Position numbers and translations under genes: made by a program
Source: a virus
Virus record (IMG/VR): IMGVR_UViG_3300043399_000446
Span: 1 to 64,000 of that record
Length of the DNA stretch: 64,000 nt
Reading direction: 5' to 3' (one strand)
Notes under the pieces: generated by a model
Told to the model about the DNA's origin: nothing
The model's database searches: none
The model's input: the letters and a program-made list of their open reading frames with translations, nothing else
Shown here: one piece after another, positions 4,007 to 62,537 of the stretch
How the letters are laid out: every line of letters starts with the position of its first letter
Numbering within the stretch: the stretch's first letter is position 1

Positions 4007-5558
4007 CTAAAACCTCATTTATAGCCTCGTCACTATCTACAAAATCTTCATCCACCTCTTCAGTAGTGGAATCCTCTACTTCAAACAATTGGTCAAACAT
4101 AGTAGTAGCGTTTACTGCTCGCTTACCTGAATAACCCATACTTCCTGCTTTCATTTGCATCCAAAATCTGTTGTACTGTTCAATCAAATCTAAACTTTTC
4201 TGTCTATCTTTTTGAGCAAAGATTTCATCAACTACATCGCTGAATTTAATTCTATCAAAAGTCTCGTTCATTAGCATAGCTGGTATGATACCACTATCAT
4301 AACGACGATTTGCCTCTTGCACAGCAAAGATATGCTGATATACATTGTGTGCTTGCAATAGCGTGTAGCTCAACGTATCCCAACTTGTCTTTGTTTCTTT
4401 GCCTTGCTGATTGATGAATCCTACGCCCCTGTAGCAGATATCCTTAACAAGAAGTTTATCAGTTACAGGGCTATCTGTAAAGACTTTATGGATACCATCA
4501 GCTAATACAACATCCCTAAATTTACGATTATCTTGGGCATAGTTTTTATTTTCAGCAGTTTTTTCCATCCTATATGCCCATTTCTTGTTATGCTCAAAAG
4601 TATTTTCAAAATAACACAATCCTTTTGCAGCACTATAAAATGGGCTAGCACAGTCAAATGTAATACGCAAATTTGGATTATGATATTTGCGAATAGCTCT
4701 CTGAATATCGCTGAATAGTACAGCATATTCCATAATGCTGATACCCAAACAATGTATCAAATCATGTTTACCTGGAATAAGCAAACCATCATGGATAATG
4801 TTTACTAATCGCTTTAGTGTAAGATGAATATCAACTTTAGTTTGTCCACCAAATGCCCAACCATTAAAATGATTATTGGGATAAATATTTGGGTCACAAT
4901 ACTTTTTCATTTCATCATACCATTGATCGCTTTGAGTATGATTTTGCCCCTGCATTACATTTAGAAACTTACATTCGCCATTTCTATTTTTAATGAAATA
5001 TTCATTATTGATATGTGTGGCGTCAATAGCTTCCTGGATAGATGAAATACCATGAACTGATTTACCAGTTTTTGGATCTTTGATATGATAAGTAGTCAAC
5101 GACATAGAAGGAATATCAAGACACATACCATAATCCATGTATGTATCCATCCATTTTAGTACAGCTTGGCGTTTAGCCATAGCTTTAGGGCAGTTAGGAT
5201 CTTTCCAATCTGCTGGCCATTGACCTTTTAGAATCTGGAAACCACCTGAGTCTCCTAACATGAATGTACCCTTTTCGCGTTTGCGAATGATACTTTCTTG
5301 GGGATCATCTACAGTAGGATCCAAATTAGCATGACCTGATGAATAAAGACCCCATTTGTATGTATATAGACCCTCTTTACTATTAAGAAAGTTTAGTTTC
5401 TCTACATCGCCATTAAAGCTTTGTGGAATACGCGCAGGATCAAAATACTGTTTACCTTCCCGCTGTAGTCCCAATCCTGAAATGAAAAAGGATGATACTG
5501 CGGGGAGGAAAAGAGCCCAATCATCTTGTTGGGCTGCTGAAAGATCAATTTGTTCCAA
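3996..5558 (-). CDS. dpdA: TGT/DpdA-family guanine transglycosylase
   Basis: Ordered TGT motifs DSGGFQ, LDIP, VMQG, AFGG, HCLG, TFDCAS, AHN; phage context with QueD-like gene favours a DNA substrate. Confidence 0.7.
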   Translation of the reverse strand: MEQIDLSAAQQDDWALFLPAVSSFFISGLGLQREGKQYFDPARIPQSFNGDVEKLNFLNSKEGLYTYKWGLYSSGHANLDPTVDDPQESIIRKREKGTFMLGDSGGFQILKGQWPADWKDPNCPKAMAKRQAVLKWMDTYMDYGMCLDIPSMSLTTYHIKDPKTGKSVHGISSIQEAIDATHINNEYFIKNRNGECKFLNVMQGQNHTQSDQWYDEMKKYCDPNIYPNNHFNGWAFGGQTKVDIHLTLKRLVNIIHDGLLIPGKHDLIHCLGISIMEYAVLFSDIQRAIRKYHNPNLRITFDCASPFYSAAKGLCYFENTFEHNKKWAYRMEKTAENKNYAQDNRKFRDVVLADGIHKVFTDSPVTDKLLVKDICYRGVGFINQQGKETKTSWDTLSYTLLQAHNVYQHIFAVQEANRRYDSGIIPAMLMNETFDRIKFSDVVDEIFAQKDRQKSLDLIEQYNRFWMQMKAGSMGYSGKRAVNATTMFDQLFEVEDSTTEEVDEDFVDSDEAINEVLDAT

Positions 5559-5916
5559 CTTTATTCTCTTCTTTTACTAGTGTTTGAATAACTTTAATTT
5601 GTGCTTCTTTTTCTTCGATTTGTTTCACCAAATCTTTTACTGCAGGATAAGATTCTGCGAGTTTTTCAAGTTCTATTTCTTCGTCACACTTCTTTTTAGC
5701 CCAGGATAAAATCTCTTGAGTCCCTCTGTCTAAGGCAATTGTAGTTGATAACGAAGTTATAGGACACCAATTATACCCATCATACACTTCAAAATTTGAA
5801 GTAGTACCATTATACCTCACCATTCCCGCACTTGTATTGGCCATATTCACGTAGGGGTAACTACTGCTACCTCCTACGATTTCAATACAATTTCCTCCAA
5901 CAATGGATTTAATCAT
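5545..5916 (-). CDS. hypothetical protein
   Basis: 123 aa ORF overlapping both neighbours. Confidence 0.7.
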   Translation of the reverse strand: MIKSIVGGNCIEIVGGSSSYPYVNMANTSAGMVRYNGTTSNFEVYDGYNWCPITSLSTTIALDRGTQEILSWAKKKCDEEIELEKLAESYPAVKDLVKQIEEKEAQIKVIQTLVKEENKVGTN

Positions 5917-53804: not shown

Positions 53805-53828
53805 AGATAAGGGGTTTCCCCCTTATCT
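53805..53828 (-). terminator. hairpin after sheath gene
   Basis: 10-bp stem with GAAA loop on minus. Confidence 0.55.
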
Positions 53829-56800
53829 TAGGCTGATAATTCTCCTGTGTTTAGAACACGAACTGGAATGTAGATGAATTCAGCAGCTTTCACTGGCTCA
53901 ATCGCAACGTCAACCCATAGTTCATTTCTATCTATTCTAGCAGGTGTGTTATTACTTTCATCACAAACTACTAGATAGTCGTAAATACCACGTTTTGCAA
54001 CTAAATCAATCATAAGTGTTTCGATAACACCTGCGATTTCATTACGTGTCAATGCATCATTAGGTTCAAACACAAATGGTCTAGAAGCTAGTGTTAGCTG
54101 ACGACGGATATATGCTACCAATCTTGCTACATTAGTTCTGTCTAGTGCGCTTTGTGAATTGAAACTTGTCTTATTGCCATAGTTCAATAATCCTACACCC
54201 GTAAAGAATACTAATGGGTTGATGAAATTGGTATACAATACATCACGAATACCTATACGTGTCTTAATTGTTACAAACTCACCTGTTGTTCTATTCAAGT
54301 AACCTATGTTAGTTGCGTTATCAATGATACCACGGCGTGTACCTGCTGCTGCTAACCATGGATAAGAAATAGTATCATTACGCAAGAATGTACGTAGCAT
54401 CATATGTGATGCTGGTACAGCAACTAAATTACCATTCAAGTCTGAAGTGATACCACTGGGATAAAATAGACCCATGTAAGTATTACGTGATACTAGACCT
54501 TCTTCGCCTGTTGAAGTTGCACCTACAGCATTATTTGCCCATGCTTGAATTGCGGTAGCGTCATCAGCTAAACCCATTGGTGTGTCACCAATAATATAGG
54601 CTGTTTCACCTCTATCAGCATTTAATACTATCATGTTAGGTTGTAACTCAGGATAGTTGGGAGTAGCAATTAGATTGAAAAAGTTATCTTCATCACGTAT
54701 ATCTGTGTTAGTATCAATTGCTTGACGCATTGATTGAACAACCATATTACGCTGTGCTTTACGGCCCATAAATGGCGCACCATTACTTTGTAAACCACTT
54801 ACTGATACCCAAGCATCTTTTTGTGCAGGTAACGATTGATTTGGAAAGTTGCTTCCACTGAAATAGTTTGCTCTAAACTGTTTTACGTTATATCCCGAGC
54901 GTCTTGTGTTGAATAAAAGCATACCTGTTGGATACAATGAAGCATCAGGAGCATCTAAGTCAAGATAATTGCTTGTTAATAGTGAAGCAATTGTGGGAAC
55001 TGGATCATCGACTGCACTTGTTGTACTATTAGTTGCCCAACGAGCATCAGCAAATAAAACACCATTTGAACTTACTTGATCTGTATTATTGATTAGCGTC
55101 CACTGATCTTCGCCATCCACACTTTCATAACGGCGTATTATGGGATAATTTTCTAAATCACTCGTATCTATCCATAAATCACCATAAACTAGTGACGTTC
55201 CATCGCTCTGTGCTGTAGGTGCTGTTGCACTAATGATAGGACCATTTGGATCAGTAGCGTTTGTTCCACTGGGTGTTGGAAAACCTGAAGAATCATAATT
55301 TTGATTCTTATATCCCCTCCAGTTACCATTGTAGTTTACCATGATATCTACTTGGTCGACTACTGAATAGAACCAATTTGTACCGTTCGCTGGTGCTTGT
55401 GCAGGCTCGCCTTCATTAGCAGTATATGTAAATTCAACCCAGTTACTGATCTGCGTAGTATAATTGCTTGCTGCTGTTCCTGAAATATATGTGACGCGGC
55501 TAACTGCTCCACCTGTTACAGCAGCCACTTCAATGACAAGATTATTTGCTGGCGCAGTGCCTCCTAAACTATTACCCGCGATAGTAATTTGATCGCCTAC
55601 AGCGTAACCTGAACCGCTTGCTGAAGGTATTGGAGCAACAGTATAAGATTCATATGATTTTGTGATATTAAATATTGCACCTGTACCTGCTCCAGTTGTT
55701 GATGTTTGCGAAACTGAAAACATTTTCACATCTGAAGGACCTATTTTACAACCTGACGTTGTTCCCACAACGAATCCTGCTGTTACTAATAATCCATTAG
55801 AAACGCCAGTTAGGGTATTGTAGTCATTAAGAACAATTTCACCACCTTGTGTATGAACTAGCTGTATTGAACCGCTAGTGGTAACTGAGGCTACTGTGTT
55901 AGGTATATTTGCAGCAGACCAACGAGTTACAAAATCTGTAGCAGTATCATTATTATTTATAGTAACAGTGTAATAAGATGAAAGTGATGAACTACCTGGT
56001 GTACTTACTGCCACACGTAATGTATATGGTCCTGATGAGAATACTGGATTATCGACAGAACCTGTTACAACTGTTGGACCAGTAGCTATACGCTCCCATA
56101 AATAAACTGGTGTCAAACTTGAGTCATTAAAGTTGTATTGCGCGTAAATAGAACCTGCAGGAATCGCTTTTCCACCAGTCGCGTCTAAGCTTTCTGTTGC
56201 TGCCCAGTCACTTGTAGCTAATGTTACAGCTTTTGTTGACCATGATGCTATGCCCGCGTCATAGCGAGCAATTACAGGAGCTAAACCTCCTCCTGCTGCA
56301 CCTACTTTAACCCATACTGAACCTGTAGGTCTTGGATTAGTTTGACTGCTTGTCCATAATGGCATTTGCGCCGCCGTACCATAATAAAAGCCTGGTTGTA
56401 AATAATTACCCGTATTTATTCCTAAATCTGTTAGTACTGTGCTACCTAATACTTGAGTTATTTCAATATAATTAGCATTACTTTGGCCTTTTTGCCTTGA
56501 ATAGATAGCTAGTTTTCCATCTACCACTTCAGCAAATAAGTCATACCAACCTAGTTCATTAATAACATTTTGTACACCGTGAACTGTATTATCAGGTGCT
56601 AGAGGTACTATAATATTTGCACTTATTGTGCCACCTAGACTTAATACAAAAGAATCACCAGCTGTTAGTGTAGGTTCACTTTGCGTTCCCTGGATTGTTG
56701 GCCAATCTGCTTTCCACGCATCTGAACCTAATGGTACCCATACATTGTTGGTTGATTTATAAAAATATTGTGCTGCATCGCTTGGTGCTGCTGTAATTTG

Positions 56801-57370
56801 TATAGCATTTACAGCGTATTCACCTATGTTACCAATGCTTGCTAATGGTACTCCACCTGACAATTGATCTGAATCTGTAATAACGATAGGGAATTGTTGT
56901 GTGAATTTACCAGTTGTAGCGTTGAATTCGAAAATTCCCCATGTACTATCTGTGGTATCTAACCAGTAAGCACCATTATCTGGTGCACCTGTTGGACGAC
57001 CTGTTTGACCTACTAGGGCTGCTAAGTCAATGTCTGAACGAAGTACGTAACAACGATTTGTTGCGCCTAATACTGAGTAGGCTGCTAATAAACCATATTC
57101 GTTTAGTTCATAACCTTGAATAGGTGTACCATTTGTTGTTGTATAAAAGAATGGTGTACCATAAAGATTTACTAAATCACGCTGACTTGTTACTAAGAAT
57201 AATTTATTAGAGTTAGCTAATGTCGTAGCTTGTGCGACACCTGTACCCGAGGCGTCTGCCTTGTTCTGTGCTGTAGCTACAACTACAAGAGGTACTGAAT
57301 TTGTTGGGGCAGGAAGATATTGACTTTGGTCAATAATCGTTACTTCTACGCCGGGTGATGTTAAAGCCAT
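53828..57370 (-). CDS. tail sheath protein (gp18-like) with large insertions
   Basis: SPGVEV start, PWLAAAG..RG, NVARL, FEPND, CDESNNTP, P.KAAEFIYI. Confidence 0.95.
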   Translation of the reverse strand: MALTSPGVEVTIIDQSQYLPAPTNSVPLVVVATAQNKADASGTGVAQATTLANSNKLFLVTSQRDLVNLYGTPFFYTTTNGTPIQGYELNEYGLLAAYSVLGATNRCYVLRSDIDLAALVGQTGRPTGAPDNGAYWLDTTDSTWGIFEFNATTGKFTQQFPIVITDSDQLSGGVPLASIGNIGEYAVNAIQITAAPSDAAQYFYKSTNNVWVPLGSDAWKADWPTIQGTQSEPTLTAGDSFVLSLGGTISANIIVPLAPDNTVHGVQNVINELGWYDLFAEVVDGKLAIYSRQKGQSNANYIEITQVLGSTVLTDLGINTGNYLQPGFYYGTAAQMPLWTSSQTNPRPTGSVWVKVGAAGGGLAPVIARYDAGIASWSTKAVTLATSDWAATESLDATGGKAIPAGSIYAQYNFNDSSLTPVYLWERIATGPTVVTGSVDNPVFSSGPYTLRVAVSTPGSSSLSSYYTVTINNNDTATDFVTRWSAANIPNTVASVTTSGSIQLVHTQGGEIVLNDYNTLTGVSNGLLVTAGFVVGTTSGCKIGPSDVKMFSVSQTSTTGAGTGAIFNITKSYESYTVAPIPSASGSGYAVGDQITIAGNSLGGTAPANNLVIEVAAVTGGAVSRVTYISGTAASNYTTQISNWVEFTYTANEGEPAQAPANGTNWFYSVVDQVDIMVNYNGNWRGYKNQNYDSSGFPTPSGTNATDPNGPIISATAPTAQSDGTSLVYGDLWIDTSDLENYPIIRRYESVDGEDQWTLINNTDQVSSNGVLFADARWATNSTTSAVDDPVPTIASLLTSNYLDLDAPDASLYPTGMLLFNTRRSGYNVKQFRANYFSGSNFPNQSLPAQKDAWVSVSGLQSNGAPFMGRKAQRNMVVQSMRQAIDTNTDIRDEDNFFNLIATPNYPELQPNMIVLNADRGETAYIIGDTPMGLADDATAIQAWANNAVGATSTGEEGLVSRNTYMGLFYPSGITSDLNGNLVAVPASHMMLRTFLRNDTISYPWLAAAGTRRGIIDNATNIGYLNRTTGEFVTIKTRIGIRDVLYTNFINPLVFFTGVGLLNYGNKTSFNSQSALDRTNVARLVAYIRRQLTLASRPFVFEPNDALTRNEIAGVIETLMIDLVAKRGIYDYLVVCDESNNTPARIDRNELWVDVAIEPVKAAEFIYIPVRVLNTGELSA

Positions 57371-57490
57371 TTTATATTTCCTTTATTGTAAAATTTTGAG
57401 GTTTACCGCCTGAGTTATAAGATTATTTAGCAAAAATTTCAAAAAAGTGCTCAAACCGTGCCTTCGAAGGTTCCAAAACATAAATACTTT

Positions 57491-57835
57491 ATGAGACCTA
57501 TTTGCGAAACCTGTAACAAAAATGTCAGGTCAATAAATTACATTAAAAATGGACAATACCATTACCGTAGCCAATGCGATGAGTGTAGAAGAAAGAAAAT
57601 AAATCTACCACCTAGAAAACCTAATTGGCTCAGGAGTGGTTATAAGAAAAAACCCGCATGTGATTTATGCGGGTTTAAGTGCATCTATCAATCTCAGATA
57701 GTAGTCTATCACATTGATGGTGACTTAGAGAACATTGAATTTAATAATTTACGCAGCGTGTGTTTGAATTGTATTGAAGTAGTAAAACGTACAAAGGTTA
57801 CTTGGCGCAGGGGTGATTTAAAAGTTGACTACTAA
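57491..57835 (+). CDS. small Zn-binding HNH-like protein
   Basis: CxxC pairs, HIDGDLEN...NL..VCLNC; ATG 4 nt after TAAATA. Confidence 0.7.
   Translation: MRPICETCNKNVRSINYIKNGQYHYRSQCDECRRKKINLPPRKPNWLRSGYKKKPACDLCGFKCIYQSQIVVYHIDGDLENIEFNNLRSVCLNCIEVVKRTKVTWRRGDLKVDY
57647..57676 (-). terminator. terminator for dNMP kinase transcript, inside opposite-strand CDS
   Basis: AAACCCGCAT/ATGCGGGTTT stem with T6 tail on minus. Confidence 0.55.
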
Positions 57836-58450
57836 TTTAACTTTTTTGTGTAACTCATCTATAGTGCCGTCGTTTTGAATTACAAAATCATATTTCAATC
57901 CCACGCTACTATACTCGCTAGCATGAATACCAGCTTTTTCTAATCTACTTCTTGCCATTGCCCAACCATAATGGCGATCACCTTTTTGAAATTCTTCAGC
58001 ATCAGCATACCATTCTGGATTCTTACCACGTTCGACTCTGATAGTCATCCCACCCGCGTTTTTAATAGCTTTTAGCTCATTAGGGAATCTACAATCAGTA
58101 ATTACTACGTTGTGTTTAGTTTGCCTAAGTTTATTTTCTACGCTTGCCACCCAGATGTCGTTGTGAAAGTTTTGACGACAAACTTCTGTGCCCCAATACT
58201 GTAGGATCCATCTTGGGGTAAGATGTGGCATTCTTAAACGCTCAGACCACCATGGGTCTACTTGCTCACGCCATTCTCTGCTTGCTTTAGTTGTACCTTC
58301 AAGCATTTCACGATTCCAACCAAAAACATTAGCGACAGCATCCTTTAAAGATCCTGCGAAGCTCATACGCTTAAATCCGTGAAATGTACAAAGATAATCT
58401 GCTATTGTATCTTTACCTGAACCAATTAGGCCTGTTATTCCTACAATCAT
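57818..58450 (-). CDS. deoxynucleoside monophosphate kinase (T4 gp1-like)
   Basis: GLIGSGKDT, FAGSLKD, TPR.ILQ.WGTE, DCRFPNE, HASE. Confidence 0.92.
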   Translation of the reverse strand: MIVGITGLIGSGKDTIADYLCTFHGFKRMSFAGSLKDAVANVFGWNREMLEGTTKASREWREQVDPWWSERLRMPHLTPRWILQYWGTEVCRQNFHNDIWVASVENKLRQTKHNVVITDCRFPNELKAIKNAGGMTIRVERGKNPEWYADAEEFQKGDRHYGWAMARSRLEKAGIHASEYSSVGLKYDFVIQNDGTIDELHKKVKLVVNF

Positions 58451-58522
58451 TGAAACCCCCGTGATTTCTTATGACATAGTATTACAACATAGATAAAATG
58501 TAAAGAGATAAGGTTACCTATT

Positions 58523-59308
58523 TTATCCCTGTACCCAAGTCAACGGCTGTGAATAGTCAACATAACGCTTGAGTTCATCAATCAAACGTTCTTGGTCAGC
58601 TTTGCTTTCAGCTTTCATAGCTGAACCATTCAATGTTGTGCCACCACCTGGACCCACAATACTACCATATTTTTCACGGGCCTCACCTATGATACCTTTT
58701 AGAACTGCTAGTGTATAGTCACCTATCCAAACACCAGCACCTGGATCTTGTAGTAGCACTTCTTCAGGTCTTTGGACATCTGCCCAAATAAGGACTCTCT
58801 CGCCTGTTCCTTTAGGGTCACGGACAATACGTAATACTTTGGTAACAGGGTCAAATGTATAGATAACGTAACCACCAAACATACGTGCAGCCAGTTCTAC
58901 ATAACCTGCGTAAAAGTCATAAGTTGCCATACCACCAGCATAGTTATAATTTAGCAGGTAAGTATTAAGGATAGCACTACTAAAAGGATCAAATGAAGAT
59001 GATGCTGGTCCTGTTTCCATACCCACGGTTCTGCGGAAGATTGATCTTACGTTTATGAATTCCTGTGGCAATGTATAAGTGTCAACATTCTTGACCACAG
59101 TCATTAATGTATATGATTCCGCTGTGGCATTTTGTGCCCGTTGACGGTAAATTTTAATGGCGTAATTATAAGCAGCTTCAAAATGCTGGGGATCTAACTC
59201 CAGGTCTACAATATCACCACCTAATCTTAGGCGCAGATTTTCAAACATTGCGTTTTTTAATTCGTCTAACGTGTATCCATTAGGTGTATTAAGTATATTA
59301 GCTGCCAT
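58523..59308 (-). CDS. neck protein (T4 gp13-like)
   Basis: LRLGG..VDLEL, KY....GPGGGTTLNG. Confidence 0.8.
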   Translation of the reverse strand: MAANILNTPNGYTLDELKNAMFENLRLRLGGDIVDLELDPQHFEAAYNYAIKIYRQRAQNATAESYTLMTVVKNVDTYTLPQEFINVRSIFRRTVGMETGPASSSFDPFSSAILNTYLLNYNYAGGMATYDFYAGYVELAARMFGGYVIYTFDPVTKVLRIVRDPKGTGERVLIWADVQRPEEVLLQDPGAGVWIGDYTLAVLKGIIGEAREKYGSIVGPGGGTTLNGSAMKAESKADQERLIDELKRYVDYSQPLTWVQG

Positions 59309-59370
59309 AATTTTAATCCATTTATAAATTTATTTATCTGGATTTTCTGGTTCTCTAATCATTCCTAGGC

Positions 59371-59398
59371 AAAAGGCGAGTAGATATGCTCTACTCGC
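59371..59398 (-). terminator. intrinsic terminator closing the ncRNA candidate
   Basis: GCGAGTAGA/TCTACTCGC followed by CTTTT on minus. Confidence 0.7.
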
Positions 59399-59399
59399 A

Positions 59400-59750
59400 A
59401 AAATAAAAACCATTCCTTAGGCTCTATTACAGAGGCGACGATGAATTTAAAGATTAAGGTGGAGGATTGTCTATGTCTCACCTACCCCTCAAGGGGACTT
59501 TACCATATTCGCTGCAAAGTCAAAACATTATTCATCGGGTAGTTTTGACCAGCCTGGGCCCTCTATCGCTATTACCATGACCCAGCAACATCAACCATTA
59601 AGATACAGGAAACGTTTCCGTCAAGGGACGGACGTTTAGGCATCATAGGGTAGTCCTGTAAATTCGGCGTTGGTCTCACCTGCCACCGTCACCCGTGAAT
59701 AGGGAACGGATTATAGACACACTCCAGGGCGTGTGTTTGCCCATTAACCA
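59400..59750 (-). ncRNA. large structured ncRNA candidate, family unassigned
   Basis: ORF-free, GC-elevated, at least 8 hairpins, G-U pairs only on minus strand, 8-bp long-range pairing, own terminator. Confidence 0.6.
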
Positions 59751-59761
59751 ATAATTATTAC

Positions 59762-60631
59762 TTACTTGCTATTTTCGTAAGACCATTTCCAAGTATAACC
59801 TTCTTCTAGACCTAAACTGTCACACAATTCATCAGTAAAGGTACCATCAATTCGTAATGTATATCTAAATCCTGGTTCAGGATCTACACCATGATAGTCG
59901 CGGTTATTGAAAAAATAACTTCTAGCTCCTGAAGGGAGATAATGTTTTTCTTTATTTTTTTCATCCCATATAAAGCTAGGTCTCCACCCACCATCAAAGA
60001 ACAAGTTTATATTGTGATCTTTATGTTCTGCTACGATACTATCTCTGTGTATAGTTACCCCTGCGTTGGGATAAGTAGTGAAGAACATTATTCTTCCTAT
60101 TTCTTTGAAAGGTAGTGTTTTTATATATTCTAGTAGTTTAGGGAAATGCGATGCTGCAGGAGTCCAATTATCATTATTTTGAGTTTTATTCCTGAAGTCA
60201 CCGTGCTTTAGATAAAGAGCAAAGAACCAAGGTATAGCTGACCCTAAAGCAAAGTACGCATACTTATAAAATGCCTGTATTTCTTGGCCTTTAGGGGCTT
60301 TACTTATCAGATCCAGTAAAGCGTGATGATGAATCCCTGAGGGATCTAAAGTAGATAGAATTTTAGTCCATGACCCGTGATTATCATATCGCAATTCTTC
60401 TTCAGGGGGTATATCACCATATATCATTCCCATCTTGTATTCAGTAGCTAATGCTAATCCTTGGCAACATTCTATATGTAATTCAGTATCCATACTATGG
60501 TCGATAAATTGATCCATAGATATTATCAGTTGTTTTTTGATACCTACACCTTTAGCTCCATATTCTTGGTATTCAAAATGGGGTATTGAAATGTTTCCTA
60601 TACTGAATATTTTATGTGCTTGGTTGTTCAT
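59762..60631 (-). CDS. cupin/2OG-Fe(II) oxygenase-like protein
   Basis: IHRD (HxD), FNNRDYHGV, LRIDG. Confidence 0.6.
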   Translation of the reverse strand: MNNQAHKIFSIGNISIPHFEYQEYGAKGVGIKKQLIISMDQFIDHSMDTELHIECCQGLALATEYKMGMIYGDIPPEEELRYDNHGSWTKILSTLDPSGIHHHALLDLISKAPKGQEIQAFYKYAYFALGSAIPWFFALYLKHGDFRNKTQNNDNWTPAASHFPKLLEYIKTLPFKEIGRIMFFTTYPNAGVTIHRDSIVAEHKDHNINLFFDGGWRPSFIWDEKNKEKHYLPSGARSYFFNNRDYHGVDPEPGFRYTLRIDGTFTDELCDSLGLEEGYTWKWSYENSK

Positions 60632-62297: not shown

Positions 62298-62327
62298 AGT
62301 GTTTCCATGTGAGTAGACATTTCAAGC

Positions 62328-62356
62328 ATTATAACAGAGTGCCTATTTATTGTCAA
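62328..62356 (-). promoter_or_regulatory. consensus sigma70 early promoter
   Basis: TTGACA-17 nt-TATAAT. Confidence 0.85.
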
Positions 62357-62537
62357 GTTTTGGTGCCCGATTTAACTTAAGGCGCCAAAACATCCGCCAG
62401 CGAATGCTTTGTGGGGTTTTGTGTAGACTTTGCGTCCCAGTCAGCCATTTACCGTCAATAAGTTTGCCAAAAGGCTTTGGTTTAGGTTGACCCTTTAGCA
62501 ATCGGCGTGCTACTTGTTCGTAGGGAGAAAGTTTCAT
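62343..62537 (-). CDS. small basic early protein
   Basis: MKLSPYEQ start 7 nt after -10 box. Confidence 0.55.
   Translation of the reverse strand: MKLSPYEQVARRLLKGQPKPKPFGKLIDGKWLTGTQSLHKTPQSIRWRMFWRLKLNRAPKLDNK

Follow-up and report, generated by a model that had tools for sequence, protein, structure and literature searches.

The stretch of DNA analysed here, referred to as the window, comprises 64,000 nucleotides (nt; positions 1 to 64,000) of the IMG/VR virus record IMGVR_UViG_3300043399_000446, an 86-kb record with an estimated completeness of 25%. Its minus strand carries a gene for a head-tail adaptor Ad2/neck protein (58523–59308; 261 amino acids (aa), phrog_211, E 3.5e-22), preceded by an open reading frame (ORF) of 289 aa (59762–60631) which matched no Pfam or PHROG family and was absent from all 80 related neck loci inspected. 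The 453 nt between the two (59309–59761) are the longest interval of the window without an ORF of at least 80 aa and contain a conserved element of approximately 390 nt (59360–59752, minus strand). This element represents a previously undescribed family of structured non-coding RNAs. Alignments of relatives placed its first conserved bases, TATTGG, 10 nt past the stop codon of the upstream ORF and its end after a direct repeat, R2. The original prediction, made by a model from the letters alone, had described the interval as the largest ORF-free gap with raised GC content, next to neck genes. All of this was borne out, with GC contents of 0.42 in the gap and 0.453 in the element compared to 0.372 in the window, and with the neck gene as the next gene. 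All six reading frames of the element are interrupted, the longest minus-strand frame within it spanning 38 aa, and insertions and deletions of one and two bases between family members argue against a coding function. Folding of the single sequence gave a modest gain over shuffled sequences (minus strand, z = -1.98; plus strand, z = -1.32), so the window by itself settles nothing and the support for a structured RNA comes from its relatives.

Homologues were collected by motif scans, a procedure which misses members with altered motifs. An invariant 17-mer taken from the first alignment retrieved 82 stretches from viral contigs, 74 of them members and eight unrelated; a second motif found 55 viral stretches, of which 22 were new and 20 of these members. 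In metagenome contigs, a gapped pattern recovered 55 stretches and every one was a member. The family thus comprises 94 viral and 55 metagenome contigs, two sets that may overlap. The gapped pattern also matched one stretch among 185,579 bacterial and archaeal species genomes, on an Alkalicoccus contig and within an ORF of 302 aa; it was discarded as a chance hit (approximately 0.26 expected). A blastn search in distant mode with the element and a divergent member found no match in 50,697 phage records. The neck protein of the window is 34–40% identical to its homologues in Atu_ph07, PA5oct and jumbo phages of the Rak2 group. The carriers are jumbo myoviruses of fresh water, uncultured and only distant relatives of PA5oct, Rak2 and Atu_ph07.

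A secondary structure model of 92 base pairs in 17 helices, including three pseudoknots, was written on an alignment of 63 distinct full-length members with lengths of approximately 385–450 nt. Across these sequences 88.7% of the model cells were paired, compared to 75.7% (sd 0.3) in shuffled alignments and 37–42% when partners were slid by one to three columns. Two-sided changes were present in 71 of the 92 pairs as opposed to 46 in the shuffles, and none of 500 shuffles attained the model's value for any of five measures. RNAalifold, applied to 52 sequences, proposed 52 pairs, 33 of them with two-sided changes; the long-range pairs were added by a separate covariation scan, and the 5' end emerged from wider alignments. 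Among 4875 paired cells, 224 were G-U and 71 A-C. This excess of G-U over A-C fixes the minus strand as that of the RNA, the strand which the original prediction had chosen on the same grounds. The covariation across the intergenic regions of relatives, well above all controls, makes it almost certain that the family is a genuine family of structured RNAs.

The fold consists of a 5' core and a 3' module. The core spans approximately 300 nt with about 16 helices and all three pseudoknots, and its loops and joining strands are nearly invariant. At the 5' end, the strand TTGGTT (59746–59751) forms pseudoknot P1 with GACCAA (59670–59675) in the loop of hairpin P4 (GGTG/CGCC, 59666–59680); P1 is paired in 92.3% of cells with two-sided changes in six of six pairs (helix 1), P4 in 87.6% with four of four (helix 5). 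An H-type pseudoknot follows at 59718–59742, in which the CACAC loop of P2 (GGGC/GCCC, 90% paired, helix 2) pairs with a downstream GTGTG. In the register of the window, offset by one column, this loop pairing reached 42.6%, compared with 82% in the register of the family, where four of four pairs were compensated. Hairpin P3 (CCGTT/GACGG, 59686–59709) was 99% paired with two-sided changes in three of five pairs (helix 4). A junction domain (59604–59660) is closed by P5 (TACAGGA/TCCTGTA; 97.3%, two-sided changes in seven of seven pairs, helix 6), which surrounds a conserved CTACCC, a short variable hairpin and the helices P7 (AACG/CGTT) and P8 (TCCGTC/GACGGA), paired in 92% and 90% of cells (helices 7–8).

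Hairpin P9 (CTGGGTC/GGCCCAG, 59554–59585) was paired almost throughout (99.8%, two-sided changes in six of seven pairs, helix 9), and its 18-nt loop (59561–59578) is nearly invariant in the family alignment. P10 (GCTG/CAGC, 100% paired, helix 10) encloses P11 (GTCAAAAC/GTTTTGAC; 85.3%, two-sided changes in eight of eight pairs, helix 11) at 59511–59553. The loop of P11 bears CGATGAAT (59530–59537), which pairs with ATTCATCG (59439–59446), a strand 80 nt away, and thereby forms the long-range pseudoknot P12 (98.6% paired, two-sided changes in five of eight pairs, helix 12). P12 stacks on P13 (TAAAG/CTTTA), which closes a junction of P14 (CCCC/GGGG) and P15 (AGGTG-GA/TC-CACCT) at 59448–59502; the helices of this region (13–16) were 91–100% paired. 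Loop variants across members showed the 12-nt loop of P15, CATAGACAATCC (59464–59475), to be almost invariant. The strands joining P5 to P9 and P10 to P13 are nearly invariant as well. An additional peripheral hairpin with a GUAA cap exists in some members, paired in 100% of 21 sequences and compensated. Two other pairings were considered and dropped. A possible fourth pseudoknot between the conserved GACTA and TAGAC of an invariant loop was not upheld on inspection by eye, as the middle position varies without keeping the pair, and a CAA/TTG pairing proposed by RNAalifold clashes with P1 and has one-sided changes only, so P1 was preferred.

Many of these stems had been anticipated in the original prediction. 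Every string it quoted is present at the minus-strand place given for it, including CGATGAAT and ATTCATCG, whose long-range pairing it had proposed. Under the same shuffle controls ten of its stems gained support and two did not. Covariation among the 63 sequences upheld ACACAC/GTGTGT, the P3, P5, P7 and P8 stems, P9, P11, CCCC/GGGG and the long-range pairing, and CTCT/AGAG stood as an optional hairpin. The stem GACTTTGC/GTAAAGTC was paired in only 41.2% of cells, with equally high values in 486 of 500 shuffles, and CTACCC/GGGTAG in 56.8%, a value reached by all 500 shuffles. Of the doubled AGGTGAGAC both copies exist, and the second alone is conserved.

The 3' module of approximately 90 nt contains, in this order, the word TCGCC, the optional small hairpin CTCT/AGAG (59422–59434, in 18 of the 63 members), the direct repeat R1 (CCTAAGGAATG, 59411–59421), in this window a T-rich run (TTTTTATTTTT, 59399–59409), the 3' hairpin GCGAGTAG/CTACTCGC (59376–59398; 61% paired, helix 17) and the direct repeat R2 (CCTAGGAATG, 59360–59369). 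A second TCGCC is located inside the 3' arm of the hairpin. This arm (TATCTACTCGC) is invariant family-wide; the 5' arm drifts and is often mismatched. Between lineages R1 and R2 change in concert, with AAGAAT, AGAAGAT, AAAAGAT, AAGCAG or GCTGATT present in both copies. We infer that R1 and R2 are two sites for one partner; alternatively, they may be like strands competing for one pairing partner, or protein sites at the DNA level. In the 86-kb record, and in a complete element-bearing genome of 364 kb, both repeats and the invariant arm have no further occurrence. Pairing of the repeats with a target in trans was considered and rejected, as the element, the 86-kb record and the 364-kb genome contained no complement of them. 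The word ATATCTAC was not enriched in the window (five occurrences, 2.9 expected).

Searches against known families retrieved no relative of the element. With Rfam 15, no match at gathering score was obtained in the whole window, and only chance-level hits appeared at 59200–59900 with E values up to 10. The best of these, Xoo1, scored 21.9 bits where the threshold is 70 (E 0.28) and was dismissed as a chance match. Neither search matched the models of GOLLD, ROOL, OLE, HEARO, raiA, the phi29 packaging RNA (pRNA), tmRNA, the group I intron (RF00028) or the bacterial A and B and archaeal RNase P RNAs, and ARAGORN detected no tRNA and no tmRNA in the window. The claim that the RNA belongs to no recognised family therefore stands. 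A group I intron can also be rejected on genetic grounds: the element interrupts no gene, both flanking ORFs are complete, and relatives without the element keep the neck ORF. The repeats flanking a segment also brought to mind a reverse-transcriptase template of the retron or DRT2 type. This candidate was rejected since no RVT_1 domain was found in the 86-kb record or in five large element-bearing records, one of them complete. No description of the element was found in the literature accessible to us, supplementary motif lists aside, and a term search of the accessible part of one study (10.64898/2026.10.21.760802) gave none either.

Comparison with GOLLD and ROOL, drawn by the original prediction, is apt in kind, and the compensatory changes demonstrate a conserved fold. 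Like these RNAs, which often occur in phages and prophages, the element is a large, intricate, pseudoknotted non-coding RNA, carried by phages, accessory, and first met in lake metagenomes. It differs in matching neither model, in its smaller size (approximately 385–450 nt) and in its surroundings, as neither the window nor the stretches fetched for ten related element loci yielded a tRNA gene.

The distribution of the element among related phages is patchy. Exactly one copy was present in each of four large records, including the complete 364-kb genome. Among viral contigs, the best 80 of 448 relatives of the neck protein were used; an element copy was detectable by blastn in only nine of these 80 loci, and in most of them a gap of approximately 54 nt separates the neck gene from a MazG-like ORF instead. 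In some relatives with empty sites the same small upstream ORF runs straight into the hairpin that precedes the neck gene. No second copy was found elsewhere in element-lacking relatives, as judged from five long records that are only 21–39% complete. A tree of the neck protein with 97 distinct rows, 43 of them from carriers, called for at least 10 changes of state in the presence of the element, compared to 28–37 after shuffling of the labels in the 10 listed of 200 shuffles; sampling for this tree was biased, as motifs led to the carriers and neck similarity to the non-carriers. Pairwise identities of the RNA and the adjacent neck protein were moderately correlated (Spearman 0.43), with outliers in both directions (RNA 99% with neck 77%; neck 97% with RNA 73%). 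Given this patchy presence and moderate correlation, the element behaves as an accessory module that would be lost and exchanged via recombination. The slot from the MazG-like gene to the element or neck gene also holds cargo genes which differ among relatives.

Two gene contexts were found downstream. The neck gene begins 134–283 nt past the 17-mer in 64 of 74 members and follows the element in 35 of the 55 metagenome members. Six loci (L094, L101, L168, L170, L173 and L180) have no neck gene in the fetched stretch and carry small conserved ORFs after the element. In five of the six a terminase large subunit gene lies 2–4 kb downstream of the element; the sixth, L180, shares the small ORFs and gave no terminase hit in the fetched stretch. 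A context of the terminase type was found in 13 of the 55 metagenome members. In L094 the first ORF after the element (5216–5611, minus strand) matched a homing-endonuclease PHROG weakly (E 5.1e-05). These six loci further contain a conserved two-hairpin motif approximately 60–130 nt past the element, after a TAAATA-like word; both stems have visible compensatory changes, and the motif probably serves the gene that follows as a structured leader.

Between element and neck gene, outside the RNA, the window has a hairpin (AATCCA/TGGATT, 59315–59344, minus strand) around the word GATAAATA (59331–59338), just before the neck start codon (59306–59308). The word occurs 17 times in the window (5.9 expected), 14 times on the gene strand and mostly 1–30 nt before an ORF start, and we take it to resemble the late promoter word of phage T4. 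Hairpins of the GATAAATA type precede the neck start in the inspected neck loci with or without the element, so that a late promoter of its own, located past the element, most likely drives the neck gene. A similar promoter-like word was seen by eye after the element in the loci with terminase context. In the window and in L002, L006, L016, L023, L045 and L076, the hairpin at the neck start (e.g. TTTCCTGAT...ATCAGGAAA) holds the motif on its loop side and a Shine-Dalgarno-like AGGA in its 3' arm. Transcripts initiated upstream would have the ribosome site of the neck gene masked, and those initiated at the motif would not. The arrangement resembles the late promoters within start-site hairpins described for the T4 lysozyme gene and known from some T4 late genes: here too the hairpin covers the ribosome-binding region, with the difference that it concerns the neighbouring promoter rather than the RNA. 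The hairpin suggests that upstream transcripts, of which the RNA would be part, read into the neck gene.

Taken together, these observations favour a separate, single-copy accessory RNA gene. A promoter of the neck gene's own, two different downstream contexts and a single copy per genome speak for such a gene over a leader specific to the neck gene. In many members the fold starts a few bases past the upstream stop codon, or directly after the hairpin and T run of the MazG-like gene. As the element starts at most approximately 10 nt past this stop codon or terminator hairpin, where a promoter does not fit, it would be transcribed together with the preceding gene, or by read-through of that gene's terminator, possibly followed by processing. 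The 3' end of the RNA would lie at or near the 3' hairpin, ahead of the late-type promoter of the next gene. The folded RNA may then serve in trans as a scaffold that binds a partner from phage or host, for which the co-varying R1 and R2 would be paired sites. We regard it as probable that the element is an independent RNA acting in trans rather than a cis regulator or a DNA element, and the full proposal, an independent accessory RNA of a new family that functions as a trans-acting scaffold, is on balance favoured as well.

Several observations weigh against this proposal. No promoter-like site was identified in front of the element in the window, where a late promoter had been predicted; GATAAATA sits behind it. 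The transcript ends were placed by conservation alone, and the sequencing runs that contain the stretch are labelled as freshwater DNA, two of them possibly from the source sample, with no RNA run among them. The terminator predicted behind the RNA is present in this window as the 3' hairpin with a T run. Relatives share the hairpin, but most of the 63 members lack the T run, which weakens the case for termination there. No candidate partner gene adjoins the element consistently. Direct repeats with concerted changes are more typical of DNA sites, such as iterons and protein-binding repeats, than of RNAs, and the constant placement of the element, directly ahead of a late-type promoter and late genes that run in the same direction, would also suit a role of the 3' module in cis or at the DNA level. 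Finally, the collection of members by conserved motifs means that the invariance of two motifs is partly built in.

Four alternatives were ranked, in descending order a cis-acting regulator, a ribozyme, an assembly RNA and a DNA-level element. According to the first, which we consider unlikely, the RNA senses a signal or binds RNA polymerase and so sets the read-through of the 3' hairpin into the late gene; it would be a very large attenuator, riboswitch or antiterminator. This would account for the position of the element, always co-oriented with and directly upstream of the next gene, and for the terminator-like 3' hairpin in the window. TCGCC, moreover, occurs twice, and each copy could pair with GGCGA in the 5' arm, so that one structure would preclude the other. 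In T4, a start-site hairpin keeps read-through transcripts untranslated, and by this precedent the late-promoter hairpin around the neck start implies that read-through occurs. However, the promoter-like GATAAATA hairpin separates the element from the neck gene and is found in loci with and without the element, so that a 5' untranslated region of this gene is not what the locus presents. Close relatives have the same neck gene without the element, the downstream genes vary by phage group from the neck gene to unrelated small ORFs, and the absence of a conserved T run removes the intrinsic terminator expected of an attenuator. With approximately 390 nt and three pseudoknots, the element also far exceeds known attenuators.

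A bolder reading is that the element represents a new large RNA machine of giant phages, either a ribozyme or an RNA for head-tail or packaging assembly, spread among freshwater jumbo phages as a mobile RNA-only module. The core with its triple pseudoknot would perform chemistry or organise proteins, and the paired, co-evolving 3' repeats would dock a dimeric partner. This seems improbable to us.

Considered separately, a ribozyme is quite unlikely. The pseudoknotted core and the invariant joining strands would form a catalytic centre, with which the RNA could, for instance, release itself from the upstream transcript or act on other RNA. Size, three pseudoknots and invariant single-stranded segments beside covarying helices are typical of large ribozymes, and group I introns and RNase P RNA in particular resemble the element in size, in a core with long-range pseudoknots, in invariant joining strands and in variable peripheral hairpins with GNRA caps. 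The RNA also abuts the upstream ORF in many members without room for a promoter, and its 5' end would hence need processing. Some short words in the element resemble conserved elements of group I introns, a lead at most, but they are out of group I order. Neither a ribozyme family of Rfam nor the group I or RNase P covariance models matched even with E values up to 10, the helix order is unlike theirs, and the element interrupts no gene. To our knowledge, other large ornate RNAs of bacteria and phages which were once suspected of being ribozymes have turned out otherwise or are unassigned so far.

The possibility that the RNA takes part in virion morphogenesis in the manner of the phi29 pRNA, binding the portal, neck or terminase assembly, is very slight. 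Both contexts are late morphogenesis regions, one before the adaptor gene and the other upstream of a block that ends with the terminase, and the element is single-copy per genome. As in phi29, a structured RNA encoded by the phage lies beside genes for the head-tail connector or terminase. This gene neighbourhood is nevertheless the sole link: the pRNA family of Rfam did not match, the element is more than twice as long, and close relatives with neck proteins 81–88% identical do without it, which means that it is not essential for assembly in this lineage.

Least probable of all is a DNA-level element, i.e. a cluster of protein sites or an origin with a priming transcript like ColE1 RNA II or the T4 origin transcripts, with which the element shares a structured transcript followed by repeats and A+T-rich DNA in single copy; the concerted changes of the two direct repeats, the T-rich TTTTTATTTTT between R1 and an inverted repeat with one invariant arm, and the absence of further copies of the repeats from the 86-kb record would suit it, but the strand-specific excess of G-U pairs and compensatory changes over 300 nt reflect selection on a folded single strand, the element is wholly absent from close relatives, and no initiator gene is adjacent. 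The cumulative GC skew of the complete 364-kb genome turns at approximately 193 kb and the element lies at 81.8 kb, with no skew or strand switch at the site, a weak argument as skew tracks gene direction.

Large RNAs of such an architecture are rare, and those known from the past turned out to be ribozymes, guide RNAs or self-assembling cages. With approximately 150 stretches in two possibly overlapping collections and 63 of them aligned, a well-supported alignment of a new RNA class is at hand. Its defined structure, clear boundaries, natural presence and absence variants and a complete 364-kb carrier make the class directly testable, and it adds to the evidence that jumbo phages bear functional modules other than proteins which annotation pipelines skip.

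The cultured relatives provide further context for the locus. PA5oct (L192) and the window (53828–59308, minus strand) share the gene order Ad2, dNMP kinase, tail sheath, the tail sheath ORF of the window encoding 1180 aa. Only 36 nt precede Ad2 in PA5oct, and in Atu_ph07 a gap of 68 nt separates the neck homologue from a divergently oriented gene. The window contains another intergenic gap 2.5 kb upstream of the element, 216 nt in length with a GC content of 0.44 (62298–62513), between divergently oriented genes.

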